Positions 1-36,809 are shown, numbered from the stretch's first letter. The stretch: DNA of 36,809 nucleotides from a virus (IMGVR_UViG_3300045988_038600:1-36809); one strand, 5' to 3'. The notes: generated by a model from the letters alone, not told the origin. Numbers and translations: made by a program.

Positions 1-99
1 GTTTTTTTTGAGAAAAGTTTTGGTAGTTCATAATTAAGCCGTATCTTTGAAATGTCAAAAGGAAATAACCACTTAAAAATTAAAGATATGAAGAGTCAA
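1..99. repeat. Terminal overlap copy 1, identical to 36711-36809. Indicates a circularly closed assembly with a 36,710-bp unit.
   Basis: Direct comparison shows 99/99 identical bases at the two window ends, and the flanks diverge. Confidence 0.95.
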
Positions 100-109
100 T
101 TTATAGAAT
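18..109 (+). repeat. 92-bp perfect direct repeat, copy 1 (promoter plus the first 19 codons of the leader gene)
   Basis: 18-109 is identical to 2487-2578 by base-by-base reading. Confidence 0.9.
19..49 (+). promoter_or_regulatory. Bacteroidota-type promoter P1 (-33 TTTG at 19-22, -7 TAtcTTTG at 42-49, 19-nt spacer)
   Basis: Matches the Bacteroides primary-sigma consensus TTTG / TAnnTTTG. The same element recurs at 2488-2518 and, diverged, at 29103-29132 with both boxes conserved. Confidence 0.7.
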
Positions 110-315
110 TAACAAGAAGAACCGCTCTAGAAGATGTAATAATCAGAAATGACAATTCTGAAAAGTCAAAGATGATCCAGGAAAAACAAAGAGCACTTGA
201 AAATGCTAAAGAAAACGCCGAGTATTACAGGTCCATAGGGCAAAATGAATTTGCAGATAATGAAGCTAGCAGGGCGCGTTTATTGGAAAGACAAATCAAA
301 TTATTAAAAAATTAA
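52..315 (+). CDS. Hypothetical early protein, predicted coiled-coil. The true start may be the Met at 88.
   Basis: ORF track. It is the first gene after P1 and ends in tandem TAA TAA stops. The ATG at 52 lies only 2 nt after the -7 box. Confidence 0.6.
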   Translation: MSKGNNHLKIKDMKSQFIELTRRTALEDVIIRNDNSEKSKMIQEKQRALENAKENAEYYRSIGQNEFADNEASRARLLERQIKLLKN

Positions 316-321
316 TAACCT

Positions 322-339
322 GGCGGGGTAGCACCCGCC
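322..339 (+). promoter_or_regulatory. Conserved intercistronic hairpin, copy 1 (GGCGGG / loop GTAGCA / CCCGCC)
   Basis: 6-bp GC stem with no U-tract. The homolog at 2822-2839 has two compensatory pair swaps and conserved flanks (AATAACC ... ACAACA). Confidence 0.6.
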
Positions 340-355
340 ACAACACTAAAAGGAT

Positions 356-637
356 ATGAAACAGAATATAGGAGAACTAAGCGAGGCGGATTTAAAAGCC
401 CGCCGCCGCTTCTGGAACAAAAAAGGATTTTTCGGAGAACCTACAAAGAAACAGATCGAACGGGATTCAATGAAAATGCAGAAACTAGTTAAGGCGCTGA
501 AAGCCCGTTCATTTGAAAGAGTTATGAAAATACGTACCTCTACATGGACGAACAATCTTTCCCCCGAAGCACTCCTGATACTGAACGCTAGCGAATCAGA
601 TTTAAATCACGCAATATCAACCTTTAAAATATTTTAG
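356..637 (+). CDS. Hypothetical early protein. It has an Arg-rich N-terminal patch (KARRRFWNKK), and its C-terminal half is paralogous to 2521-2811.
   Basis: ORF track. Nucleotide homology links 458-515 and 581-630 to 2608-2665 and 2758-2807. Confidence 0.65.
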   Translation: MKQNIGELSEADLKARRRFWNKKGFFGEPTKKQIERDSMKMQKLVKALKARSFERVMKIRTSTWTNNLSPEALLILNASESDLNHAISTFKIF

Positions 638-640
638 ATC

Positions 641-727
641 ATGAAACAGTTTGTAGTTTACACGTTTTGGGCGATTCTATTTGTATTATTCATTTTGTTG
701 TGCTGTGAGCCAACAACTAATATTTAA
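641..727 (+). CDS. Possible 28-aa hydrophobic peptide (MKQFVVYTFWAILFVLFILLCCEPTTNI)
   Basis: Hand translation. It starts 3 nt after the previous stop and ends 4 nt before the next ATG. It falls below the ORF-track length cut-off. Confidence 0.35.
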   Translation: MKQFVVYTFWAILFVLFILLCCEPTTNI

Positions 728-731
728 CGGT

Positions 732-923
732 ATGGTGCAGATATTAAGAGTTAATATAGTAACCACAGCGGGAACTATTGTAAGAGACTACACAGAAGTA
801 GCGGACGAACTAGGGGTCTACGTTGTAGAGGATATAGAGGCGGAACGCCAATACATCGCCGACTGTTACACCTCACAGGGGTACATTGTGGAGCGTGTTA
901 ATTTAATGTACGTAACGAAATGA
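732..923 (+). CDS. Hypothetical protein (63 aa from the ATG at 732; the track starts it at TTG 681)
   Basis: ORF track frame. The ATG at 732 follows the small ORF, and the stop overlaps the next start (ATGA at 920). Confidence 0.55.
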   Translation: MVQILRVNIVTTAGTIVRDYTEVADELGVYVVEDIEAERQYIADCYTSQGYIVERVNLMYVTK

Positions 924-1891
924 TTTTATGTATTATCTTAGCGGCGGTACTTATCGCGATCGCCGCATATTATCCAATTAAACTTATAAAATTTTATTGT
1001 ATGGAAAGTTTTGAACAAGGCCTGAAGGCCAAAATTACACGGGACTTAAGAGAAGGAAGAGTTTCTACTAACCTTATTTTGCTGACGCTTGGCGCGGGCG
1101 GTTTGCGTCTCACACGTAACCAATTAGATGTTATTTTCGAATGGATGTTACAGAATACGAACGCGTGGCGCGTGCACACGTACGCAGACAAAAAGGTAGC
1201 AGTGGTGTTTGCGCGCTCTCCATTCCACCCGGAAGAGTGGGATAATTACAAGGACTACAAACACGTGATGCTCCAAATGTTCGGCGGGTTCGGAACTTAT
1301 GACTTTCTAACCGCCCGCACCACCGAGGTCGAATCATACCGGATTAAGAAAAACCTAGAAATTTCATTAAAAGAACTAGCCATTATTGACAACCCTATAA
1401 AACTGTATGACTACGTTACGTTTGACTACAATGGGGTGCCTACTCTGGGAATGGTAACAGGTAATGGTGTAAGGGACGGAATTTATTCTGTGAAAATATT
1501 ATCCGGGGAATTGCGCGGACAACGTGCAACACTTGGAAAAGGGAACAGAATAGCTAAAATAGAACCGGATGAAGCGGTTAAGGAACTGGCCCGGCAAAAG
1601 GAGGAGTGGAAGAACAAGAAGCTCGAGGAAACCATAGTGGAACGGAGAGAAACGTTTAGAGAGAAGTATGGCAACATTGTACGCGGATCATATTTGAAGA
1701 GCGGGATTTCCCTTTATATAGTCGAATCCGTAGACATGGTAGAAGAAAAAGCTACGGCGATTAGACTATTATGTTCTTTTATCAAACAACCCGCGGGTGA
1801 AAAGTGCATACTTCCCTTAGAAAATGGATTTAAATTAATAACAGCTGAAGAAGCAGCAGAAATTTTATTAAAAGAATACAGCAATGAGTAA
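920..1891 (+). CDS. Hypothetical protein, 323 aa, with a hydrophobic N-terminus
   Basis: ORF track. ATGA start/stop coupling with the upstream gene. Confidence 0.7.
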   Translation: MILCIILAAVLIAIAAYYPIKLIKFYCMESFEQGLKAKITRDLREGRVSTNLILLTLGAGGLRLTRNQLDVIFEWMLQNTNAWRVHTYADKKVAVVFARSPFHPEEWDNYKDYKHVMLQMFGGFGTYDFLTARTTEVESYRIKKNLEISLKELAIIDNPIKLYDYVTFDYNGVPTLGMVTGNGVRDGIYSVKILSGELRGQRATLGKGNRIAKIEPDEAVKELARQKEEWKNKKLEETIVERRETFREKYGNIVRGSYLKSGISLYIVESVDMVEEKATAIRLLCSFIKQPAGEKCILPLENGFKLITAEEAAEILLKEYSNE

Positions 1892-2153
1892 CAAGAAAAA
1901 ATTAAAATCACGCGATGGCGCAACGCGCATAACACCGGACAAAAGTACAGGAGACTTTTGCGGACTGTATAAGTTACAAACGTATAACGATCGCCGCGGA
2001 GTATGGGAGAACTTGAAAGGGTGTACCAACATCACCTGGGGCAAAGCCGTAATAGCCCGGAAAAATTTCGTAGCTCTACGAAGGGCGTGCAAAGTGGCAA
2101 ACGGCGCAAGCCTGCATATTAACGTACCAACATATGAGGGCAACGGAAACTAG
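1884..2153 (+). CDS. Hypothetical protein, 89 aa
   Basis: ORF track. Short overlaps with both neighbours. Confidence 0.6.
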   Translation: MSNKKKLKSRDGATRITPDKSTGDFCGLYKLQTYNDRRGVWENLKGCTNITWGKAVIARKNFVALRRACKVANGASLHINVPTYEGNGN

Positions 2154-2442
2154 TGAAAAGGTATTCGAGCGTACTATGTCTAAGTACGTAGAGAATAAAG
2201 GAGGGATGGCAGTTAAGCTGCTATCCCAATTTATTAACGGGCTCCCGGATCGGCTGTACTTGTTACCGGGTGGGACGGTTATCTTTGTTGAGTTCAAGTC
2301 TACGGGCTGCAAGCCTAGACCGATACAGCGCGTTATACTCGACCGGATCGCCGCGCTAGACTTTAATGTACGTGTAGTATCGAACCCTGACGAGTACAAC
2401 GATTTGAAGGAATTGATAGACTTTTATGTTAACGGGCGTTAA
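2134..2442 (+). CDS. VRR-NUC domain nuclease
   Basis: The segment GLPDRLYLLPGGTVIFVEFKSTGCKPRPIQ...VRVV fits the VRR-NUC (PD-(D/E)XK) core pattern G.PD...E.K...Q. Confidence 0.8.
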   Translation: MRATETSEKVFERTMSKYVENKGGMAVKLLSQFINGLPDRLYLLPGGTVIFVEFKSTGCKPRPIQRVILDRIAALDFNVRVVSNPDEYNDLKELIDFYVNGR

Positions 2443-2486
2443 CTAGGAGCGTTTAATGCAAATCAAAGTTAAGAGTTTACCCTATA

Positions 2487-2578
2487 TTTTGGTAGTTCAT
2501 AATTAAGCCGTATCTTTGAAATGTCAAAAGGAAATAACCACTTAAAAATTAAAGATATGAAGAGTCAATTTATAGAAT
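2487..2578 (+). repeat. 92-bp perfect direct repeat, copy 2
   Basis: Identical to 18-109, with an offset of 2469 bp. Confidence 0.9.
2488..2518 (+). promoter_or_regulatory. Promoter P2, an identical copy of P1 (-33 TTTG at 2488-2491, -7 TAtcTTTG at 2511-2518)
   Basis: Lies within the 92-bp perfect repeat. It lacks the CTAAAGTTTTTT..GAGAAAAG upstream segment found at P1 and PB. Confidence 0.65.
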
Positions 2579-2811
2579 GTTTTGTAGAACTTACGGAGGA
2601 AGAATTAGAACGCAGTTCGATGAAAATGCAGGAGTTAGTTAAGGCGTTGAAAACCTTTACCCCCGAAGAAGTTAAGAAAATACGCTCTACAAAATCTCTC
2701 CCTCCTTATTTCGCTAAACTAGAGATAAAAGAGTTTACCGCCGATATGCTCACAGTGCTAAACGCTAGCGAATCAGATTTTAATCACGCAATAGCAACCT
2801 TTAAAATTTAA
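2521..2811 (+). CDS. Mosaic hypothetical protein. The N-terminal 19 aa are identical to the 52-315 product, and the C-terminal ~70 aa are paralogous to the 356-637 product.
   Basis: ORF track plus the nucleotide alignments described in the findings. Confidence 0.65.
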   Translation: MSKGNNHLKIKDMKSQFIECFVELTEEELERSSMKMQELVKALKTFTPEEVKKIRSTKSLPPYFAKLEIKEFTADMLTVLNASESDFNHAIATFKI

Positions 2812-2821
2812 ATAATAACCC

Positions 2822-2839
2822 GGGCGGGTAACACCGCCC
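2822..2839 (+). promoter_or_regulatory. Conserved intercistronic hairpin, copy 2 (GGGCGG / loop GTAACA / CCGCCC)
   Basis: Same length, position and flanks as 322-339. Pairs 3 and 4 are swapped C:G->G:C and G:C->C:G. Confidence 0.6.
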
Positions 2840-2855
2840 ACAACATCCAAAAGAT

Positions 2856-3083
2856 ACGAAAGAAAAAATTTTAATTATTGGAAGACCTGGAACAGGTAAA
2901 ACAAATTTAGGAAATGTGTTATCCGAGTTAATGAATTATGATTTAGTGGATGAAGTTCCTTCTGCGCAGTGGCTATTCGTAAATGCCGAACCGAGAACGG
3001 TATATGTGTCAAACAGTATAACGAAGGCAGAAGCCACCCTGTATCTAAGGAATTTCACGGTAATCACAGTATCAAACTTATAA
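2856..3083 (+). pseudogene. P-loop NTPase-like ORF (..KEKILIIGRPGTGKTNLG.., 75 codons) with no ATG/GTG/TTG before the Walker A motif. ACG sits at the position homologous to the ATG at 356.
   Basis: Hand translation gives an open frame from 2832 to the TAA at 3081-3083. An ungapped alignment of 340-371 with 2840-2871 places ATG(356) over ACG(2856). Confidence 0.45.
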
Positions 3084-3094
3084 AAATTAGAATC

Positions 3095-3526
3095 ATGAAA
3101 AAATTAATCAGTATTTTAGCAGTAGTTTTGTTATCAGTTAGCGCAATGGCGCAAGTATCATCCGCATCAGGCAGCCTAAAGACGCTTAAGTCTTTCCGTC
3201 TAGGGACTTGTAAGATCGTAGAAGTAACGAAGGGCGACGCAGTAACCTATCAGATCACCGGACAGCTAGCCGGAACAAGTTCCCTAGAGATGGACATCGA
3301 TCTAGGCGACGCGGACGCGGCGGTTAAGACGCTCTTAAGTCTGGCCGAGTACAAGCCTTCAAGTAGAAATGAGATAGTACACCTTAACAACCCTGCGGGA
3401 CATACCGCACGTTTCCCGAAGATGGCGGGCGTGTGGCAGATATTCAGCCCGGGCAATCAGTTCACCGTTAACATCTCACGTAACGAGCTTAAGAAGATGG
3501 CGGAAGTAATAACCAATAATAAATAA
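3095..3526 (+). CDS. Secreted protein with a signal peptide (MKKLISILAVVLLSVSAMA/QV), 143 aa
   Basis: The frame is that of track ORF 2969-3526. The ATG at 3095 gives a classical n-h-c signal peptide, so the GTG-started extension is likely spurious. Confidence 0.7.
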   Translation: MKKLISILAVVLLSVSAMAQVSSASGSLKTLKSFRLGTCKIVEVTKGDAVTYQITGQLAGTSSLEMDIDLGDADAAVKTLLSLAEYKPSSRNEIVHLNNPAGHTARFPKMAGVWQIFSPGNQFTVNISRNELKKMAEVITNNK

Positions 3527-8414: not shown

Positions 8415-8421
8415 GGATTGA

Positions 8422-8454
8422 GGGGTTAATGTATAAAAACGTTAACCCCTTTTT
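8422..8454 (+). terminator. Intrinsic terminator T1 (GGGGTTAA / 12-nt loop / TTAACCCC followed by TTTTT)
   Basis: 8-bp perfect stem at 8422-8429 and 8442-8449, with a T-run at 8450-8454, lying 7 nt after the stop of the last early gene. Confidence 0.8.
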
Positions 8455-8672
8455 GTGTTAAAATCGTGTTAACGCTTTTGGCGCACTTCTACAAAAACTT
8501 TGTGCGAGAAAACTTTTTAGAGAGAAAAGTTGATTTTAACTGTATTTTAACTAAAAAGCCTGTTTTTGACAAAAAAGTAGCCAAAACGTCTTTTACAACT
8601 CAATTTCATGTTTTACACCTGACCGCACTCACAGGACGCAGAACGCATTTTTCAAGTTTTTGATGTAAAAGG

Positions 8673-8900
8673 TTAAAATTTGTTTCTTTTACACCTAAAT
8701 CGCTTATTTATAGTACTTTATCATATAATATAGTGTATTTGTAATAGATGTAAAGATGATTAGTAGTGGAGTACATATTAATAAGTAATAATATAGTTAA
8801 CATAAATATACTATTGTTATTTTAAATAATAAATATATGGTATTTTTTAAATATACTCTATAGGGAAACTACCTTTTCATCGTTTACATCATTTACATCG
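8673..8900 (+). repeat. AT-rich non-coding cassette A, homologous to cassette B at 28737-28953
   Basis: The 50-bp core 8673-8722 matches 28737-28786 at 45/50. GATGTAAAGAT is identically spaced in both. A second conserved block lies at 8846-8889. Confidence 0.8.
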
Positions 8901-14920: not shown

Positions 14921-17142
14921 TGAATATATACATACCGATAGCAGATGTGACACTAACCGACGGCCAGACCTATGACGGGCAGTTACCCGTGTGGGCTACA
15001 CGCCCGCTAATGGTGAAGGTGACAACGGGCACGAACGAGCCTGTTAATATTACTGTGAGGAACAGCGGATTGGCGGTTAAAACCATAACTTTGCCATATC
15101 AGCAGTACGGGATGGACGTTGACCTATCCTTCGCTGCCCCTTTGCTTAAGCGCGCCGACCGTAACAAGTCGCAGGGTACGCCGTGGTTTATGCAACAGGA
15201 GCTATTGTTCTGGGTATCCGACCCGACGGACTATATAACTATTCCGGTATTCCATTGCGATCTCACATACTGGGACACGCTAGGAGTAGATGCGGCTCTT
15301 CCCCAACCGCCGAAACCGCGTATACCGGGGCATACACTAGACATATTCTTCCCCTATGTTATACACCCGTCTGACGCGTTTTTCCTTGAGGTTGAACCCG
15401 TGACAGGCGCGCCCGGTAATGTTATATTTCCCGCTACCTATGTACTGGGAAACACTATTGATATCACGTATATCAAAAAGTTGACAATTAAAAACGTGTG
15501 GGGTAACGGGCTGGATCAAGTGATTAACTATGAAGATCGCCTAATGTCTGACGCTGTCTATGATACCGGGCTTCAATGCGCTTTGCGCGCCAGATGGAAC
15601 ATGCGCAACGGGCAATGGTTTTGGGCTGCATTTAAAGATTACTTTTGGTCTAACAAGTTCACACCGATCCGAGGACGTGGAGGCGTAACGGAACAAGCGG
15701 AGATCACTATAAACCTAGAGTACGGCGAAGAGTATTATAACGTGTACCAAGAGTTGTTGGTATCTTCAAACGTAGTGTTCGAGTTGAACCTTCCGGGCAT
15801 AAACCAATATCAATCGAAACGCTTTAGGGCGGAAGTTTCAGGCGACACCGGCGCGCGCTGGTCTAACAGTACCAAGACGTACAGGCAGCAAGTAAGGTTC
15901 AAGACCACGAAACTACAAGACAACTACATGTTCCCGTTAGCACCGGATCAACCGCCTGCACCGTCGATCGTGTTTACAGCACAGAAAAACCCGTGGACGA
16001 TCGTCGCGGCCTACGCGGAAGGACTGGTTAACAGCATATACAGTAACACGACATGGCAAGTACAGAGCGAACCGAGCTGGCTTACTGTGACTAACGGCAC
16101 GACGCTATTAACGCCCGGCATGTTCGAGCAGGGCAGCATATTGTTTAGCGCGGGCCTGACCTGGGAACAAGCAAAAGTGGGAAGCTCGTATAACATAAGA
16201 CTAAAAAAACCCTTCACGGAAATAGATAACAATGCGTACCGTATTATAGCAAATGATCCAGCGTACGAATGTGTATTTGACTATTTAGATGAATACGGGA
16301 AGCTTGTTACAAATTCCGGATGGCGTTCCATGGGGGCTATAATAAACACAGGTAGGAGTCCACAAGTGGCTTTACGTATCAAAAAATCGGACGGTACCGC
16401 GATCACGCCCGCAGACATCACATCGATAAACGCCTATTGGGGGAAACGTTATCACCAATTCCCGGCGGGTACGTCTAATCTCACCGCAACGGTAGCCGCC
16501 AACACTGGTGAACCGAGAACGGGTAACATAGTCCTAGAGAATATAGTGGGGTCTACTACCTATACAATACCAATCAGGCAGGCGGGCGCAACGGGCAATA
16601 TATCGGTAGACACACCGACGTTTAACATAGGCTATCTAACACACCCGGTAACTGTGAACGTTACATCATTTGGTAACTGGTCTGTATCGGCCCGCGATAC
16701 GTGGATCACACCAAATAGGTATGTAGGACCAAACGGAACAACCGCCGTAACGTTAACGATCGGGGATAACTTGCCGGCAGGCGCGTCCGCTAGAACCGGA
16801 ATAATAACGTTCTATAACGACTTAACCGGGAATATAGCAGTAGTTACGGTTAATCAGGGAGGCGCGCCAACTTCGATCAAAATATTACCGTCGCGTGTGT
16901 CAGGCCCTAAAGCCGGAGGAAACCAAATCGTGCTCGCGGCGGCAGCATCCGAAAATAGCTGGACTATGGGTAGCGCGCCTAGCTGGGTATCCATTACACC
17001 TACGTCGGGAGGGTCCGGGCAAACCGCCATAGCTGTTAAATACGATACGGCGAATCCCGGAGCAGCGCGGACAGGGCAATTGAGAATCGAGAATATGACT
17101 ACGCACGAGATTGCGATTTGTTTAATCACACAGGAGGGATAA
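14920..17142 (+). CDS. Tail protein, 740 aa, with C-terminal BACON-like repeats
   Basis: Repeated pattern W..(S/T)....W(L/I/V)(T/S)..P..G.G......(V/L)....N....R.G.I.....: SEPSWLTVTNG, ARDTWITPNRYVGPNGTTAVTLTIGDN..ARTGIITF, and SAPSWVSITPTSGGSGQTAIAVKYDTANPGAARTGQLRIEN. Confidence 0.65.
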   Translation: MNIYIPIADVTLTDGQTYDGQLPVWATRPLMVKVTTGTNEPVNITVRNSGLAVKTITLPYQQYGMDVDLSFAAPLLKRADRNKSQGTPWFMQQELLFWVSDPTDYITIPVFHCDLTYWDTLGVDAALPQPPKPRIPGHTLDIFFPYVIHPSDAFFLEVEPVTGAPGNVIFPATYVLGNTIDITYIKKLTIKNVWGNGLDQVINYEDRLMSDAVYDTGLQCALRARWNMRNGQWFWAAFKDYFWSNKFTPIRGRGGVTEQAEITINLEYGEEYYNVYQELLVSSNVVFELNLPGINQYQSKRFRAEVSGDTGARWSNSTKTYRQQVRFKTTKLQDNYMFPLAPDQPPAPSIVFTAQKNPWTIVAAYAEGLVNSIYSNTTWQVQSEPSWLTVTNGTTLLTPGMFEQGSILFSAGLTWEQAKVGSSYNIRLKKPFTEIDNNAYRIIANDPAYECVFDYLDEYGKLVTNSGWRSMGAIINTGRSPQVALRIKKSDGTAITPADITSINAYWGKRYHQFPAGTSNLTATVAANTGEPRTGNIVLENIVGSTTYTIPIRQAGATGNISVDTPTFNIGYLTHPVTVNVTSFGNWSVSARDTWITPNRYVGPNGTTAVTLTIGDNLPAGASARTGIITFYNDLTGNIAVVTVNQGGAPTSIKILPSRVSGPKAGGNQIVLAAAASENSWTMGSAPSWVSITPTSGGSGQTAIAVKYDTANPGAARTGQLRIENMTTHEIAICLITQEG

Positions 17143-17143
17143 G

Positions 17144-18877
17144 ATGAAAATAGTATCATTAAGAGTTAACGGTTACGACATAGACGGTTTAGATAACGCA
17201 ACGGTCAAGATCACATTAAACAACATTTCCCCGGTTACTATGACCGGGGACAGTGTAGCGTTCAGTGCTACGGTAAAAGTGCCGAGAACGCCCAACAATG
17301 ACCGGACGTTCATAGGGCTAAACAAAGGTTTGCTTAACTGTGAGTATTACGTAGCCGAGGTGCTGATAGCGTCTATACCGTTCAAGTATTACGCTTATGT
17401 GTCTGACGAGCCTACGCCGTTCTACGCCAAGGTATCAGCGTCTCAAACGGAGTACACGATCAACCTTATTGAGAGTACGGACAAGTGGGCCGACGTTAGT
17501 TTACCTATATCCGCGCCGCCCGTTTACGGTACGGTGCAGGATGGAGCGCTACCCATCAGCGCGGCAGACCTTTCCGAGCTAGTAAGACGCTACGTCACGT
17601 TCCCGCAAATCACGTTCCCGGCGATCAACCCGGAATACAGCACAGGTATGGCCGTGCCGGACGCGTTATCGCAGCAGGCCTCTATCATTGTGAAACGGCG
17701 CGATCTTACATGGCAGGGAGACGTAGCGACGGGATCGACAAAGTTAGTGCCGCAGAACTACACGAAGGGGCGCGGAGGGTACGTATATCCCAAAAAAGCT
17801 ACAATCGTAATGGATAACACTAGTATATATGTGAACGCCTCTTATTTTGGGAACGGCACGGGGGGCATAACTCCTGGCTTCCTACTATCGGCAGGGCAAG
17901 GCCGACAGATTGTAATGATCATAGAGTATGTTGGCGCGTCTATTCCGACCAGCAAACCGCCGATACAGTTACGGGGGGTGGCATCGGGTTTGGGTAGATC
18001 ATTGGCATATTCGGGGCAAATATCGGACCGGATTTGGATTTACACGTCCGCTCTAAACGTTAATATGACTATGTACCCGAAAACGGATTCCTACATGAAA
18101 CTATCCGCAACTATCAGGGGAGTGACCCGGGACGACTATTTTAAGTTTCCCGACGGTTACTCGCCGGAAGAGGTTATAAATTGCGGGGACGGTAAAATAA
18201 TATATGATTTGGAAATTGCGCCCGCGTCTCAAACTGTTTACTCTCAACCCGCGGATTTCCCCTACAATGACGTGAAAAAGCTAGTTGATGATATGTGTAC
18301 GGCATGGCATTGGCGGAAGATTTACCGAAACGGTACGTTACGTGTAGAACCAATAGTAGATGCAGACCTTCGGGACGGTACGTCGGACGCGTGGTCGCAT
18401 ATACACGATTGGAGCGACAAATTACGTAGCGTCGAGACGGTAGATGTGCCGGACGAGTTCGCGGATCAATACGTGTGCAGTCTGGACGCTACGCAATTCA
18501 GTTACAGCAACGGCGCGGGCACCGTTACGCCTGTTAAGGACGCGTATAAGTCCGGCGTTAAGTTCACATACGATCGTATGATCTTTCCGAAACTGGGACT
18601 TACCAGTGTATTCACCACTCCATCACCGAGTTTGCCATTTATTTATGTAGGGAGCATTTATTATTCGTATATAAACCGACATTTCGGTATGTTCAGATCA
18701 CGGGTACAGGTGAAAATAAAGGCGCAATTAGAGTATGCAGACGTTGAAAACCTACGATTAGGGGATGCTTACTACTTTTCGCAGCTGAATAGCTGTTTCT
18801 ACATTAAATCTTTAGGCGAATATGACGTAGCAACCGGGAATTGTAAGCTATCTTTGTACAAAATGGATTTAAAGTAA
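17144..18877 (+). CDS. Hypothetical tail/baseplate-module protein, 577 aa
   Basis: ORF track. Lies between the BACON protein and the tape-measure-like gene. Confidence 0.6.
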   Translation: MKIVSLRVNGYDIDGLDNATVKITLNNISPVTMTGDSVAFSATVKVPRTPNNDRTFIGLNKGLLNCEYYVAEVLIASIPFKYYAYVSDEPTPFYAKVSASQTEYTINLIESTDKWADVSLPISAPPVYGTVQDGALPISAADLSELVRRYVTFPQITFPAINPEYSTGMAVPDALSQQASIIVKRRDLTWQGDVATGSTKLVPQNYTKGRGGYVYPKKATIVMDNTSIYVNASYFGNGTGGITPGFLLSAGQGRQIVMIIEYVGASIPTSKPPIQLRGVASGLGRSLAYSGQISDRIWIYTSALNVNMTMYPKTDSYMKLSATIRGVTRDDYFKFPDGYSPEEVINCGDGKIIYDLEIAPASQTVYSQPADFPYNDVKKLVDDMCTAWHWRKIYRNGTLRVEPIVDADLRDGTSDAWSHIHDWSDKLRSVETVDVPDEFADQYVCSLDATQFSYSNGAGTVTPVKDAYKSGVKFTYDRMIFPKLGLTSVFTTPSPSLPFIYVGSIYYSYINRHFGMFRSRVQVKIKAQLEYADVENLRLGDAYYFSQLNSCFYIKSLGEYDVATGNCKLSLYKMDLK

Positions 18878-28642: not shown

Positions 28643-28692
28643 CACCTTTCATCTTTCATAAACGCCCTTTCATCATTTACATTTGAAAACTT

Positions 28693-28724
28693 AAAACGCT
28701 GATTCGTAACGAGTTGGCGTTTTT
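28693..28724 (+). terminator. Intrinsic terminator T2 (~14-bp stem including G:U pairs, 3-nt loop, T-run)
   Basis: AAAACGCTGATTCG TAA CGAGTTGGCGTTTT followed by T, lying 50 nt after the last late gene. Confidence 0.7.
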
Positions 28725-28736
28725 GCTTGTGAATGA

Positions 28737-28953
28737 TTAAAATTTGTATCTATTACACCTAACTTGCTTATTTATAATACTTTATCTATTGGTATATATC
28801 TAATGTAAAAGATGTAAAGATAATATATAGAGCTAAGAATGAAATAGTAATATAATATATAAAATATGTAAATATATGAATTAATATGTGAATGAATTTA
28901 TAGAAATATTTAAATATAAACTAATAGAGAAACTATCTCTTACCTTTTACATT
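28737..28953 (+). repeat. AT-rich non-coding cassette B, homologous to cassette A at 8673-8900
   Basis: See cassette A. It starts 13 bp after T2. Confidence 0.8.
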
Positions 28954-29102
28954 CCACCCGTTTTTGCCACTTAACTAGCTGATACGCAATTAGTTAAGGG
29001 CGTAAAGATCCGCTTAAAAAGGGCTATTTGTCATTTACACTGTTACTAAACCTTCAAAACCGTTAATCAGAGTTAAATTACTAAAGTTTTTTGGGAAATA
29101 GT

Positions 29103-29132
29103 TTTGTAGTTCAGAATAAAGCTGTACCTTTG
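29103..29132 (+). promoter_or_regulatory. Promoter PB, a diverged homolog of P1/P2 (-33 TTTG at 29103-29106, -7 TAccTTTG at 29125-29132)
   Basis: 29080-29145 aligns with 36705-36764 (ACTAAAGTTTTTT..G.GAAA.AGTTTTG.TAGTTCA.AAT.AAGC.GTA.CTTTG). Both consensus boxes are retained. Confidence 0.65.
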
Positions 29133-29535: not shown

Positions 29536-29702
29536 AACTTATCACAGTGGCGGAAGCCGCCCGGTTAGCGGAGTGCACCGAAAATGCCATACGCTACCAA
29601 CTCAACGCCGGAAAACTCACACGGTACGAGAACGGAACGGGCAAGATCAGAGTGAGCAAAAATGAGTTATTAGAAACAATTTTTAATTTTAAGAAAAAAT
29701 GA
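29523..29702 (+). CDS. HTH DNA-binding protein (excisionase/MerR-like HTH_17 type), 59 aa (not in the ORF track)
   Basis: Hand translation: MEKVELITVAEAARLAECTENAIRYQLNAGKLTRYENGTGKIRVSKNELLETIFNFKKK. This is the classic T..EAA..L.....I......G.L pattern, and the stop overlaps the next ATG. Confidence 0.6.
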   Translation: MEKVELITVAEAARLAECTENAIRYQLNAGKLTRYENGTGKIRVSKNELLETIFNFKKK

Positions 29703-30244
29703 AAGTAGTAATCGAATTAATCGGAAATGAGAGTAAACAGGATTTGTTGGCAACGTCTAATTATTTGCGCGAATTGGCGGGAGAAGCCGTACCAGAAGTA
29801 ACGGAACGTAAAACCGATCTTGACAAGTTAGCGGACGCAGTTGTAGAAGCAACAAAGGTGAAAAGTGATGGTGAAACGAAGATATTAACGGGTGAAAAAA
29901 CGCCTAAAACAGTGGCCGAGATGGTAGAATCTGAACGTGCCAAGACACGTGCTAGACGTGCCGTGAAACCTGCACCGGAAGAAGCGAAAGAAGAAGTTCC
30001 TGCACCTGCACCAGTGGAAGAAGCACCTGCACCAGTGGAAGAAGCACCTGCACCAGCCGAACCTAAAACGGATGCAGCATCTTATACTATCGACGATTGT
30101 AAGTCGTGGGCTATGAAGGCACTAAACGCAAAGAAACGCCCAATTGTACAAGAAGCTTTTGAAAGCGTAGGCGCATCTAGTTTCCCAACGTTGAAGGAAG
30201 AGATGTTTAACGATTTTGTTGCATACATTTCAAGCCGTCTATAA
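29699..30244 (+). CDS. Hypothetical protein, 181 aa, with a Pro/Glu/Ala repeat linker
   Basis: ORF track. Confidence 0.65.
   Translation: MKVVIELIGNESKQDLLATSNYLRELAGEAVPEVTERKTDLDKLADAVVEATKVKSDGETKILTGEKTPKTVAEMVESERAKTRARRAVKPAPEEAKEEVPAPAPVEEAPAPVEEAPAPAEPKTDAASYTIDDCKSWAMKALNAKKRPIVQEAFESVGASSFPTLKEEMFNDFVAYISSRL
29999..30056 (+). repeat. 21-bp tandem repeat (CCTGCACCAGTGGAAGAAGCA x2 plus partial copies; encodes PAPVEEA)
   Basis: 30005-30025 equals 30026-30046, with partial units on both sides. Confidence 0.85.
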
Positions 30245-34199: not shown

Positions 34200-36590
34200 A
34201 TGGAAAAATACACCTTATCGCTTGCAGGTTCTTCGGCTTCATTGAAGTGGAAGTCCGTACGCATGACTTGGGAAGCGTTTTTGGAAAGACTAGGAACGCC
34301 TGTAATTACTAACGAAACGGTACGCGAGTACGATAAATTAGACAAGCCCGCTAAATCTTCATTAAAGGACGTAGGCGGATTTATGGCTGGCGAGCTTTCA
34401 GGCGCTCAACGCCTTAAGAAAGCGGTTATGTCCCGTTCGATGATTACACTAGATGTAGACTTCGGAGACGATCTTTTCCCGTTCGATTTTGCAGACCGTT
34501 TTCCGGGTGTGGCGGCAGCTATTTATACCACTAGATCAGACCGCCCCGGATCGCGCCGTTACCGTCTTATCATGCCGTTTAAGGAAGAGGTTACAGACGT
34601 GACTATGTACGAAGCCGCGGCGCGTAAAGTAGCCGAGTTGTTAGGTATCGATCTATTTGATAAAACAACCTTTCAACCGGAACGTATGATGTATTGGCAG
34701 TCGCTTTCCAAAGACCAAACCGGACTATTCGAAGTATTCGAAGGTGAGCCGATCAGCGCGGAATATCTAACGGGCTTGTACGGAGACAATGAAGAATGGC
34801 GCGACGTGCGCAAATGGGCGTTCCACTCCGATACGGAACGCGATACCCGTGCCGTTATTAGTAAAGAGATGGCGAAAGACCCCCGCGATAAAGAGGGCCT
34901 AGTAGGCGCGTTTTGCCGCTCGTACACGATACAGGCAGCAATAGACAAGTACCTATCAGACGTTTACACAGAAGCGGAAAACGGACGTTATACGTACGTT
35001 CTTGGATCGGGCGCTGCCGGGCTGGTAGTGTATGATGACGTGCTTTGTTTTTCTCACCACTCAACCGACCCAATAGGCGACGGACACGCATACAACGCTT
35101 ATGATTTGGTGCGTGTGCACAAGTTCGGGCATCTGGGTAAGGAAGACAGCACCCGCGAGATGAACAAGCTAATTTGCGCCGATAAAGAGTGCGTTAAAGA
35201 TATGGTAGCCGTGGACGACGATCTAGCCGACTTCGAGGAGTACACGGACGAGGTTAAGAGCGACGCGCAGACCGCAGAGGAACTGGTTTGGGACTTGGAT
35301 AGAAAGGGCGATAAATTGTGTACCGTTCGTAACTTCGTTAACGCTTTCAAGTGTGATCCGCTATTAAATGATTTATTAGCTTACGACTTGTTTCTTGATA
35401 CGATCGTGTACACCCGTACGCCGTTCTTCTCGAAAGACATAAAGAAAGGCGATATGTTGGACGATACCGCCGTAGCGATTATCCGTGGACGTATAGAGGA
35501 TTTGCACGGTATTTATAATGACAGCAAATTAAACGACGCGCTAGAAAAGGTTTGCAGTGAAAATGCTTTCCACCCTATCAAGAAGTACCTGGAGGCGCAA
35601 AGATGGGACGGCGTTAAACGTATTGATAATTTCTTGGTTGACTACATGGGAGCAGAGCCTAGCATATACGTTTCCGAGGCGTTCCGAAAAATGCTGGTTG
35701 CAGCCGTTACTAGAGTTTATGAGCCGGGCCGCAAATTCGATACGGCTTTGGTTATGTATTCGGGACAGGGCGCGGGAAAGTCCACGCTTATACAAGCCCT
35801 TTCTAAGGGGTGGTTTAATGATTCATTAACGGACGTGTCCGGGCAAAAAGCATACGAAGCGATACAACACGCCTGGATAGTGGAGCTAGCCGAGTTGTCA
35901 GCCCTTCGCCGTTCGGACGTGGAGGCTACTAAGAACTTCATAAGCAAACGCGAGGATACGTATCGTAGCGCGTACGCCCGCCGGGTAAAGACACACCGCC
36001 GACAATGTGTATTTTTCGGGTCTACTAACGACGACGAGTTTTTGAAGGACAAAACCGGAAACCGCCGTTTCTTTCCAATCGAGGTATGCGCCAACAAAAA
36101 CACGCACAAGCTGTTTGAAAAGTCTTTTGAGGCGGTAGTAGACCAACTTTGGGCGGAAGCAATGGAGTTGTATATGTTGGGTGAAAGCCTTGTTTTGTCT
36201 GACGAAGCCGAAGCGATCGCCAACGAGGGACGCGAGGAATTTACAGAAGAAAGCCCGCTGGTAGGTATTATAGAGAACTACGTAGATAGGCTTTTCCCGG
36301 CTGACTACGAAGAACGTACAGAACAACAACGCGCCGACTTTCTAGCCGGATCACTGGAAGAAGTGGGAACGGTTCAAAAAAATACGTTCTGTTTAATGGA
36401 ACTTTGGGTGAATGCATTGGGCCGCCGGAAAGAAGATTATTCAAGTGCGAAAGGGCGCGAACTGGCAGCAGCTATGAGACAGATAGGTGGATGGTACAAA
36501 GGAAAGTTAAATAGAACTAAATTATACGGCCGACAAGTAATTTATATCCGTAAAGGTAGCAAGGAAAGCCAAAAATTACTATCTTTGTAA
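34200..36590 (+). CDS. Primase-helicase, VirE (virulence-associated protein E) family
   Basis: Walker A SGQGAGKSTLIQAL followed by WFNDSL, which is typical of VirE/D5-like helicases. The N-terminal ITLDVDFGD acidic motif is consistent with a primase-polymerase domain. Confidence 0.8.
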   Translation: MEKYTLSLAGSSASLKWKSVRMTWEAFLERLGTPVITNETVREYDKLDKPAKSSLKDVGGFMAGELSGAQRLKKAVMSRSMITLDVDFGDDLFPFDFADRFPGVAAAIYTTRSDRPGSRRYRLIMPFKEEVTDVTMYEAAARKVAELLGIDLFDKTTFQPERMMYWQSLSKDQTGLFEVFEGEPISAEYLTGLYGDNEEWRDVRKWAFHSDTERDTRAVISKEMAKDPRDKEGLVGAFCRSYTIQAAIDKYLSDVYTEAENGRYTYVLGSGAAGLVVYDDVLCFSHHSTDPIGDGHAYNAYDLVRVHKFGHLGKEDSTREMNKLICADKECVKDMVAVDDDLADFEEYTDEVKSDAQTAEELVWDLDRKGDKLCTVRNFVNAFKCDPLLNDLLAYDLFLDTIVYTRTPFFSKDIKKGDMLDDTAVAIIRGRIEDLHGIYNDSKLNDALEKVCSENAFHPIKKYLEAQRWDGVKRIDNFLVDYMGAEPSIYVSEAFRKMLVAAVTRVYEPGRKFDTALVMYSGQGAGKSTLIQALSKGWFNDSLTDVSGQKAYEAIQHAWIVELAELSALRRSDVEATKNFISKREDTYRSAYARRVKTHRRQCVFFGSTNDDEFLKDKTGNRRFFPIEVCANKNTHKLFEKSFEAVVDQLWAEAMELYMLGESLVLSDEAEAIANEGREEFTEESPLVGIIENYVDRLFPADYEERTEQQRADFLAGSLEEVGTVQKNTFCLMELWVNALGRRKEDYSSAKGRELAAAMRQIGGWYKGKLNRTKLYGRQVIYIRKGSKESQKLLSL

Positions 36591-36660
36591 TATGGAATTA
36601 AAACAATACTTTCTTTTCTAATTTTTAAGGTTAATATTTTTAGGGTGGTTTTTCAGTTAA

Positions 36661-36696
36661 AAAGTCTTTCGTAGTGATACGCGAGACTTTATTTTT
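36661..36696 (+). terminator. Intrinsic terminator T3 (AAAGTCT...AGACTTT stem followed by ATTTTT)
   Basis: Imperfect ~8-10-bp stem at 36661-36690 followed by a T-run at 36692-36696, lying 70 nt after the primase-helicase stop and just upstream of P1. Confidence 0.6.
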
Positions 36697-36710
36697 GTTA
36701 ATATACTAAA

Positions 36711-36809
36711 GTTTTTTTTGAGAAAAGTTTTGGTAGTTCATAATTAAGCCGTATCTTTGAAATGTCAAAAGGAAATAACCACTTAAAAATTAAAGATATG
36801 AAGAGTCAA
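36711..36809. repeat. Terminal overlap copy 2, the same sequence as 1-99. It re-reads promoter P1 and the first codons of the 52-315 gene.
   Basis: Identical to 1-99. Confidence 0.95.
36729..36759 (+). promoter_or_regulatory. Promoter P1 re-read in the terminal overlap, here with its full upstream context (ACTAAAGTTTTTTTTGAGAAAAG from 36705)
   Basis: Same sequence as 19-49. Confidence 0.7.

Follow-up and report, generated by a model that had tools for sequence, protein, structure and literature searches.

The viral sequence IMGVR_UViG_3300045988_038600:1-36809 (hereafter the window, meaning the whole 36,809-nt stretch that was analysed) carries two copies of a short G/C hairpin, at 322-339 and 2822-2839, each located downstream of an early promoter and shortly before a gene start. 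Since the two ends of the window are identical over 99 nt (1-99 and 36711-36809), it appears to represent a complete, circularly closed or terminally redundant genome of ~36.7 kb. Long open reading frames (ORFs) occur on the + strand only, and no tRNA or tmRNA genes were found in the window. Its nearest records are lytic sewage siphophages of Bacteroides, e.g., the B. ovatus phage BK735P4, and the hosts of remoter relatives are B. caccae, B. thetaiotaomicron, B. fragilis and B. uniformis. A scan of both strands with a regular expression for the Bacteroides-type promoter, TTTG-N19-TAnnTTTG, gave matches at 19 (= 36729), 2488, 29103 and 31444, all on the + strand, and zero matches on the - strand of the window. 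A fifth match, at 29129, overlaps the 29103 promoter and was taken as spurious. The promoters at 19 and 2488, P1 and P2, are identical, as was stated in the initial annotation of this DNA; the P1 sequence is found again at 36729-36759 because the window ends overlap. The features of the two early loci are compiled in Table 1.

Table 1. Features of the two hairpin loci and their coordinates in the window
Feature	Position	Strand	Sequence or remark
Hairpin copy 1, allele A	322-339	+	GGCGGG / GUAGCA / CCCGCC; arms 322-327 with 334-339
Hairpin copy 2, allele B	2822-2839	+	GGGCGG / GUAACA / CCGCCC; arms 2822-2827 with 2834-2839
5' flank of copy 1	314-320	+	AAUAACC (UAACC core); alignments A1/A3
5' flank of copy 2	2814-2820	+	AAUAACC; conserved
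16-nt spacer after copy 1	340-355	+	ACAACACUAAAAGGAU; G-poor, A/C-rich; Shine-Dalgarno-less initiation region of the next gene
16-nt spacer after copy 2	2840-2855	+	ACAACAUCCAAAAGAU; from the sequence
Early promoter P1	19-49	+	Bacteroides type: TTTG at -33, TATCTTTG at -7; regular expression, repeat families D1/D2
Early promoter P2	2488-2518	+	Sequence identical to P1
Leader of first cistron	50-87	+	AAAUGUCAAAAGGAAAUAACCACUUAAAAAUUAAAGAU; holds the same AAUAACC motif as lies 5' of the hairpins
First early ORF, hypervariable	88-315	+	75 aa from ATG 88; ORF finder lists 52-315
93-aa ORF	356-637	+	KARRRFWNKKG patch; not a consistent hairpin partner
First ORF after P2, chimeric	2557-2811	+	Repeat families D1, D3, D5; tblastn
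Small P-loop NTPase ORF	2856-3083	+	ACG start here

Comparison of the two loci revealed that the segments 314-345 (AATAACCTGGCGGGGTAGCACCCGCCACAACA) and 2814-2845 (AATAACCCGGGCGGGTAACACCGCCCACAACA), 32 nt each, indeed align without gaps, as initially proposed. A degenerate pattern of the element matches only the 314 and 2814 sites, with 0 matches expected from 100 shuffles. The stems differ at two compensated pairs, pair 3 being C:G in copy 1 and G:C in copy 2 and pair 4 the reverse, in agreement with the earlier description, and copy 1 has a seventh pair, U321-A340. Both hairpins constitute the minimum-free-energy structure, with -16.3 and -14.3 kcal/mol in 61-nt windows and z of ~ -3.1 relative to dinucleotide shuffles. 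They are the only all-G/C stems of 6 bp with loops of 4-6 nt in the 36.7-kb genome, and the first-order Markov expectation for such all-G/C hairpins is 0.44 (P(>=2) ~0.045). No Rfam family matched the window at gathering thresholds, and a permissive scan of 1-3100 gave two chance-level snoRNA matches with E>1.

The position of the hairpins is also shared. As previously noted, the stems start 7 and 11 nt past the upstream stop codons (313-315 and 2809-2811) and the next start position lies 16 nt beyond both of them (ATG 356 and ACG 2856); the distance from the identical promoter to each hairpin is ~270-300 nt. No U-tract follows either hairpin on the transcribed strand, the 3' flank being ACAACAC..., so that they were rightly described as not being ordinary terminators. 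An intrinsic terminator was rejected, since the terminator-like match is on the - strand only, where there is no promoter. An RNase III site of the T7 or SP82 type, which involves at least ~20 bp of double-stranded RNA, possibly interrupted, was rejected as well, the stem having only 6-7 bp and no longer helix being predicted in windows of 61-96 nt. A slippery-like A AAA AAU precedes copy 1; a frameshift or readthrough stimulator was nonetheless dismissed because the upstream ORFs and their ends are unrelated among phages and the hairpin persists where there is no ORF.

Related loci were gathered from IMG/VR by the pattern of the cassette surrounding the hairpin (described below) and by the primase-helicase gene that precedes P1, GenBank genomes were added, and a covariance model was built from 33 distinct sequences. 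This model recognised 66 elements in 58 loci, every one oriented with the flanking genes; across ~70 related loci, the element occurs in 1-3 copies per genome and in every case on the coding strand. In a set of 47 distinct sequences, pair 3 is GC in 33, CG in 13 and other in 1, pair 4 is CG in 33, GC in 13 and GU in 1, and the outermost pair is GC in 36, GU in 7 and other in 4; the three remaining stem pairs are invariant. Covariation in homologous loci, which had been suggested as a check on the hairpin, is indeed observed at pairs 3 and 4, with a score of 0.240 versus 0.078 in shuffles (reached by 0/500) and at most 0.074 in slid registers. Half-swapped chimeric stems, combining an A arm with a B arm, were not seen, despite recombination of the stem allele with the 3' flank. 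G·U pairs are present at three stem positions, against one A·C. Uncompensated breaks of the stem in homologues, which had been named as what would speak against selection on structure, do occur but are rare and mild: most stems are intact, one A·G variant (GGAGGG, in a single contig) is the sole mismatch at pairs 3 and 4, and a few elements have terminal-pair mismatches.

In addition to the hexaloop class found in this genome, there is a tetraloop class, e.g., GGGCGGG-GAAA-CCCGCCU, which both MAFFT and the covariance model align as the allele-B stem plus an extra G-C pair replacing the G·A that closes the hexaloop. A lost outer pair is offset by this inner G-C in place of G·A, and by sliding or lengthening the helix retains a minimum of 6 bp. 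Allele A is restricted to the hexaloop class and shows partial linkage to a 3' flank of its own, AUAACACUAAAAAG. Numerous independent switches between the A and B stems, first deduced from the loop and stem combinations, were dropped once the alignment identified the tetraloop class as allele B with an additional G-C. The A/B double swap may instead be a single ancient event that yielded two paralogous cassette lineages. Since both swaps may go back to this one event, the covariation taken alone is weaker than it appears.

The loops provide a further constraint. Tetraloops of the family are always GNRA (GAAA, GCAA, GCGA, GGAA, GAGA), and in two loop-unbiased IMG/VR scans ~28/28 family matches were GNRA, whereas unrelated GC-rich matches carry arbitrary loops. 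The hexaloops follow G-U[A/C][A/G]C-[A/G] (GUAACA, GUAGCA, GUCACA, GUCGCA, GUAACG) and vary only at the positions equivalent to N, to R and to the closing nucleotide. UMAC loops, to which the phi21 boxB loop CUAACC belongs, take a GNRA-like fold (PMC12550061). Collectively, the covarying stem, the lack of A/B chimeras, the G·U variants, the maintenance of at least 6 bp and the constrained loops indicate, as judged from sequence comparison, that selection acts on the hairpin as an RNA structure and on the transcribed strand. To our knowledge, the UYNC-type loops that the opposite strand would give have no known meaning. The initial claim of structural selection is upheld as far as the RNA hairpin is concerned, given its covariation, G·U pairs, loops and orientation, but the two swaps may not count as independent evidence, as they may represent one event.

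Alignment of the related loci further shows that the hairpin is the core of a portable junction cassette of ~45-50 nt, made up of stop codon(s) in or just before UAACC, the hairpin, a G-poor, A/C-rich leader of 15-18 nt and an AUG. Its consensus reads (stop) A-A/U-U-A-A-C-C, 0-1 nt, stem-loop, A-C/U-A-A-C-A-C-..-A-A-A-A-G-A-U, AUG-AAA, where AAA is usual; the UAACC flank is kept irrespective of whether its UAA is the in-frame stop. The hairpin lies at most 600 nt downstream of a TTTG/TAnnTTTG promoter in 68/70 instances with a promoter in the locus (median 270 nt), and in a relaxed recount 79/79 hairpins were within 700 nt of one. Counted from the -7 box, the distance is 27-670 nt, mostly with an ORF in between. 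In whole genomes, the hairpin follows only the promoter located after the primase-helicase gene and the duplicates of this promoter. The arrangement of promoter, short first cistron, hairpin and long operon, pointed out for this genome in the initial annotation, is a general one across the phage family.

On the upstream side, the ORFs between promoter and hairpin, zero to two in number and small, are unrelated among phages. Two loci, L001 and L062, have no upstream ORF at all, the hairpin being in the 5' untranslated region and joined at AAUAAC(C). Since these two loci keep the hairpin without the ORF, it is independent of the upstream ORF. Deletion and insertion variants join at AAUAAC(C), and leader duplications occur: in L067, each inserted ORF is preceded by a copy of a hairpin-less leader, AAUUAAUAACCCUUUAAAAYUAAAGAU-AUG, of which one further copy follows the hairpin. 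On the downstream side, the genes belong to at least 12 families, with products such as a lipoprotein-like protein (MKKLISILAV...), a P-loop NTPase (MKEKILIIGRPG...), a small membrane protein (MKQFVVYTFW...) and MKQNIGEL.... The cassette thus ends a hypervariable first-ORF slot and opens the conserved early operon.

Such a boundary position could reflect a role at the level of DNA, in which the palindrome, kept by gene conversion, would act as a hotspot or boundary of recombination, bind a protein as an inverted repeat or form a hairpin in single-stranded DNA. The cassette does mark module boundaries, with deletions and insertions joining at its AAUAAC(C), symmetric half-site changes are also expected of a dimer-binding palindrome, and GNRA-type loops are described as stabilising DNA mini-hairpins too (PMC13037366). 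However, G·U variants (G·T in DNA) and GNRA/UMAC loops make sense on the transcribed strand only, and the orientation to transcription is constant. The helix, moreover, slides or lengthens as the loop size changes, which is incompatible with a dimer site of fixed spacing. A function of the DNA palindrome itself is consequently very improbable.

The placement right after a variable immediate-early ORF would also fit an attenuator or pause site, where partial termination or pausing would adjust the expression of the first ORF relative to the downstream genes or bring ribosome loading into step. Indeed, the G/C-rich promoter-early stem-loops (PeSLs) that flank ORFans in T4-type phages cut reporter expression like a strong terminator (PMC2839356). 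The present hairpin lacks, though, the U-tract of this phage's evident terminators (8420-8451 and the hairpin before P1, as well as CCACCCTAGCA...TGCTAGGGTGG-T6 in relatives), it stands in L001 and L062 between the promoter and its only genes, and essential early genes lie downstream. Attenuation is thus an improbable explanation.

The distance from the stem of the cassette to the start codon is 15-18 nt in 70/72 instances, with a mode of 16. The exceptions are L067 and L008, in which an extra leader between hairpin and AUG brings the spacing to 34-35 nt. A hairpin placed 16 nt 5' of the AUG is at the 5' edge of the 30S footprint, and it could act as a translational operator or ribosome-positioning element, i.e., as the site of a repressor or activator or as a direct aid to start-codon selection. 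This is consistent with spacing kept over at least 12 gene families, with divergent spacers and in other Bacteroidales phage lineages, with the limitation of loop shape to the GNRA or UMAC type, and with the fact that Bacteroidetes do not use Shine-Dalgarno sequences (PMC7797042). On the other hand, the two loci with 34-35 nt depart from the rule, most genes of these phages, other promoter-proximal ones included, start without a hairpin, and the spacing could also arise from genome compaction together with a minimal unstructured initiation region. In addition, no candidate binding protein was found with Pfam, PHROGs or a scan for Arg-rich segments. We consider control of translation of this kind unlikely, if less so than attenuation.

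Occurrence of the cassette outside the phage family was examined in 185,579 bacterial and archaeal species genomes. The hexaloop form is absent from them, and the tetraloop pattern gave 10 matches, three of which (L135, L137, L141) have the cassette architecture and are phage-like. Two of these, L135 (6554-6968) and L137 (857), are contigs of Bacteroidales metagenome-assembled genomes; the third, L141 (~1270-1620), is binned to Candidatus Enterousia but matches a phage of the L121 type. The order stop, AACC, GGGCGG-GCAA-CCGCCC, 15-18 nt and AUG was found in a Porphyromonas-phage-like group (L106, L121, L127, L132, L141). The architecture is present as well on a Dysgonamonadaceae-binned contig, where a -7 box is followed by two ORF-plus-hairpin units, and on a Prevotellaceae-binned contig. 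In these other Bacteroidales lineages, the spacer sequences differ but the 15-18 nt spacing is the same. The second hairpin of L141 has another stem, GGGGGC-AUU-GCCCCC, in the same place and with a near-identical flank, and the group of L110, L115 and L133 has the non-GNRA loops UCAA and UUAU. In unrelated GC-rich phages, similar GAAA-capped hairpins precede Shine-Dalgarno-plus-ATG starts with a spacing of 20-25 nt. Since look-alike cassettes span other Bacteroidales phage lineages, their distribution argues for a function that would rest on host machinery or on intrinsic RNA properties rather than on a lineage-specific phage protein.

A dedicated phage protein had been considered in the initial annotation, where the hairpins were likened to lambdoid nut/boxB sites and the Arg-rich patch with a Trp in ORF 356-637 to N-type motifs. 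In a nut-like mechanism, the host RNA polymerase would become resistant to termination through the nascent hairpin, either alone or together with a phage protein, as in lambda N-nut or HK022 put. A promoter followed by a short cistron, the hairpin and a long operon is also the order seen at nutR or putR, the hairpin occurs after P1-type promoters only, and this genome has two slightly different copies, cf. nutL and nutR. The hairpin also resembles boxB, although in structure only, by its short G/C stem of 6-7 bp and its GNRA tetraloop or G-UMRC-A hexaloop, the UMAC form being like phi21 boxB CUAACC. Judging from the sequences, this boxB-like loop is the only defining nut feature present. No boxA-like element (of the CGCUCUUA type) was detected 5' of the hairpin, the flank being (A)AUAACC or UUAACC in all lineages. 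No intrinsic terminators were found on the + strand between the hairpins and the operon-end terminator with U-tract at 8420-8451, bar a weak within-ORF match, Rho-dependent sites not being predictable; the equivalent stretch of phage BT638P3 has no convincing one either.

As for the putative partner, the patch in ORF 356-637 does exist (...DLKARRRFWNKKG...), but an N-type role of this protein was not substantiated, its family being undetectable in the hairpin-bearing phages BF1-3 and BT566P1. The family comprises 730 relatives, all within this phage group, is often not adjacent to the hairpin, and carries no Pfam domain or functional name in any of the 120 relatives listed. The patch contains three Arg at most, with variation at the middle one (T, C, H, L, Q), and reads KALTKFWNQKS in BT638P3. 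The Arg-rich segments found in a scan were for the most part in short ORFs, often ones that overlap longer genes, and a small Arg-rich protein that is conserved was not among them; Pfam and PHROGs searches with ten early proteins yielded nothing informative except a VRR-NUC endonuclease and a P-loop protein. Furthermore, the N and R positions of the loop vary freely among near-identical phages, and the same cassette stands at internal junctions of unrelated Bacteroidales phages. The fixed 15-18 nt to the start codons of varied genes also speaks against a nut site, since a transcriptional nut site needs no such spacing and would leave it unexplained. The parallel to nut is therefore retained for the layout and the boxB-like loops, but not for boxA, a conserved protein with an arginine-rich motif (ARM) or an intrinsic terminator before the operon end, and antitermination is, like attenuation, improbable.

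The explanation that we favour, with a probability of roughly 0.4, is that of a cis-acting stability and insulation hairpin for Shine-Dalgarno-less starts, which would act post-transcriptionally and need no dedicated phage protein. Bacteroidetes ribosomes work without Shine-Dalgarno pairing, and initiation relies on an unstructured, A-rich region (PMC7797042). The fast-folding and very stable helix would serve as a fixed structural border on the 5' side of the region where translation of the first conserved gene starts, and would shield this region from the variable upstream RNA. The same helix could block exonucleolytic or 5'-end-dependent decay, or mark a processing event, and so stabilise the long downstream early mRNA. 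As a side effect at the level of DNA, the cassette and the hairpin-less leader would offer short homology patches for the gain, loss and swap of first-ORF modules.

Several observations weigh against this stabilising and insulating role. No hairpin is present after the other promoters (29103, 31444) or at other intercistronic junctions, and such P1-type-only placement is not obviously explained by stabilisation or insulation of a generic kind. In the B. uniformis phage BU2-2, the same promoter is followed by a homologue of ORF1, yet a significant hairpin is missing. The 34-35 nt spacing in L067 and L008 shows that the distance need not be tight. Classical 5' stabilisers are located within a few nt of the 5' end, so that a processing event would be needed here. 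Finally, the strict GNRA-type loops could denote recognition by a partner and not stability alone. One such possibility, which we regard as a long shot, is that the GNRA-capped helix 15-18 nt 5' of the AUG docks on or abuts the 30S platform and replaces the helix between Shine-Dalgarno and anti-Shine-Dalgarno as a start-site selector. If true, the helix would drive strong internal initiation and be spread as a portable cassette by phages of several Bacteroidales lineages.

Concerning the neighbouring genes, the first cistron probably begins at ATG 88 rather than at ATG 52. The latter is only 2 nt past the -7 box, which ends at 49, and thus probably precedes or coincides with the transcription start; moreover, the frame from the equivalent ATG is broken by a stop in L042, and in a clade with ~70% helicase identity it meets a stop after 5 codons. 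The leader ...AAAGAU before ATG 88 resembles the post-hairpin leader, and in relatives the covariance model recognises a hairpin-less copy of the cassette. No Pfam or PHROG family was found for the first ORF. The 5' end of ORF 2557-2811 is identical to ORF1, and its C-terminal part is paralogous to ORF 356-637 (51% identity by tblastn). At the DNA level, the 5' end of 2521-2811, along with the preceding promoter and leader, equals that of ORF1 (52-108), and the C-terminal two-thirds matches 424-630 at 72-81% identity. This chimeric ORF after P2 is a trace of recombination or duplication in the early region. The next gene, for the P-loop NTPase, has ACG at its start position 2856-2858, where relatives with the same cassette have ATG (AAAAGATATGAAAGAAAAAATT...), and the next in-frame start, GTG 2916, would delete the Walker A motif. 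Possible reasons for the ACG are mutation of the start codon, decay into a pseudogene, an error of sequencing or non-AUG initiation.

Some other regions of the window deserve mention. A -7-like box, TATCTTTG, is located at 36581-36588, between the primase-helicase gene and P1, and ~80-110 nt beyond it there is a terminator-like hairpin with a T-run (36664-36700), weaker than the version of relatives. Phages of B. thetaiotaomicron and B. fragilis have a clearer equivalent, consisting of a promoter, ~180 nt and CCACCCTAGCA...TGCTAGGGTGG-T6 (L013, ~17100-17262, and its L015 equivalent). The unit 36581-36700 may be a small non-coding transcription unit. Two long non-coding regions, ~8590-8900 upstream of the terminase/structural block and ~28650-28960 upstream of the replication block, share a homologous segment of ~300 nt with TTTACA(C/T) repeats and very AT-rich stretches; they are candidates for middle/late promoter regions or an origin. 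Within ORF 29699-30244, three tandem 21-nt repeats (GCACCTGCACCAGTGGAAGAA; two exact, the third diverged) at 30002-30064 encode a repeated APAPVEE heptapeptide.

The hairpin cassette represents a well-supported cis-RNA element outside Rfam. A large family of phages of gut Bacteroides carries it, and other Bacteroidales phages have look-alikes. The element is placed where early expression is set up, in a non-Shine-Dalgarno host clade whose post-transcriptional control is poorly understood. The hypervariable immediate-early slot that it borders is a good place to seek anti-defence or host-takeover genes, and the way in which this slot is reshuffled can be read from the cassette. If stability, insulation or start-site selection proves to be its function, it would represent a ready-made 45-nt part for Bacteroides expression engineering.

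Among known systems, the PeSLs of T4-type phages (Arbiol et al. 2010, PMC2839356) are similar in that their cassette extends from the upstream stop to the downstream start and includes an early promoter of host type along with a G/C-rich stem-loop. In plastic regions, they flank ORFans that are small or variable, and recombination between copies shuffles modules, which is also the case here. The PeSL stem-loop, however, overlaps or abuts the promoter, terminates upstream transcription and is present in ~50 copies per genome, whereas in the present phages a variable ORF separates promoter and hairpin, there is no U-tract, copies number 1-3 and initiation is Shine-Dalgarno-less. The lambdoid nut sites (lambda, P22, phi21) are likewise placed downstream of an early promoter with its short first cistron, and they share the short G/C stem with a GNRA-like loop and the two slightly different copies per genome; the hexaloop G-UAAC-A is comparable to C-UAAC-C of phi21 boxB (PMC12550061). 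They differ from our element by boxA, a conserved N-like ARM protein and an intrinsic terminator before the operon end, all lacking here, as well as by its fixed AUG distance and free N and R loop positions. HK022 put is more distant, with two larger stem-loops.

Hyperstable tetraloop hairpins, C(UUCG)G, were reportedly described by Tuerk and colleagues in 1988 in T4 intercistronic regions. Such hairpins act in cis via their stability, as nuclease barriers or folding nuclei. Like these, and like 5' or intercistronic stabilisers in general, the present hairpin is small, very stable and placed between phage cistrons, but its loops are GNRA/UMAC instead of UUCG, it has one location, after the first early ORF slot, and it is tightly linked to the start codon. 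The SAS/ESAS elements of Cluster K mycobacteriophages (Pope et al. 2011, PMC3203893) are likewise conserved repeats just 5' of start codons in a subset of genes; about half of the SAS have an adjacent inverted repeat, and they are thought to concern translation initiation (PMC3203893). SAS is a 13-bp motif that contains a Shine-Dalgarno sequence and occurs in 11-19 copies, and ESAS are 17-bp imperfect inverted repeats, with no sequence relation to our element, which has 1-3 copies, a perfect G/C stem of 6-7 bp and a Shine-Dalgarno-less host. Literature searches with the names of these phages or for an early-promoter hairpin in Bacteroides phages found no description of it. Early mRNAs of phages are already known to contain small hairpins with regulatory or stabilising roles, of which the present one is apparently a distinct, undescribed variant. 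What is unusual is its combination of GNRA/UMAC loop interchange, fixed distance to Shine-Dalgarno-less starts and location at the border of a hypervariable immediate-early slot.

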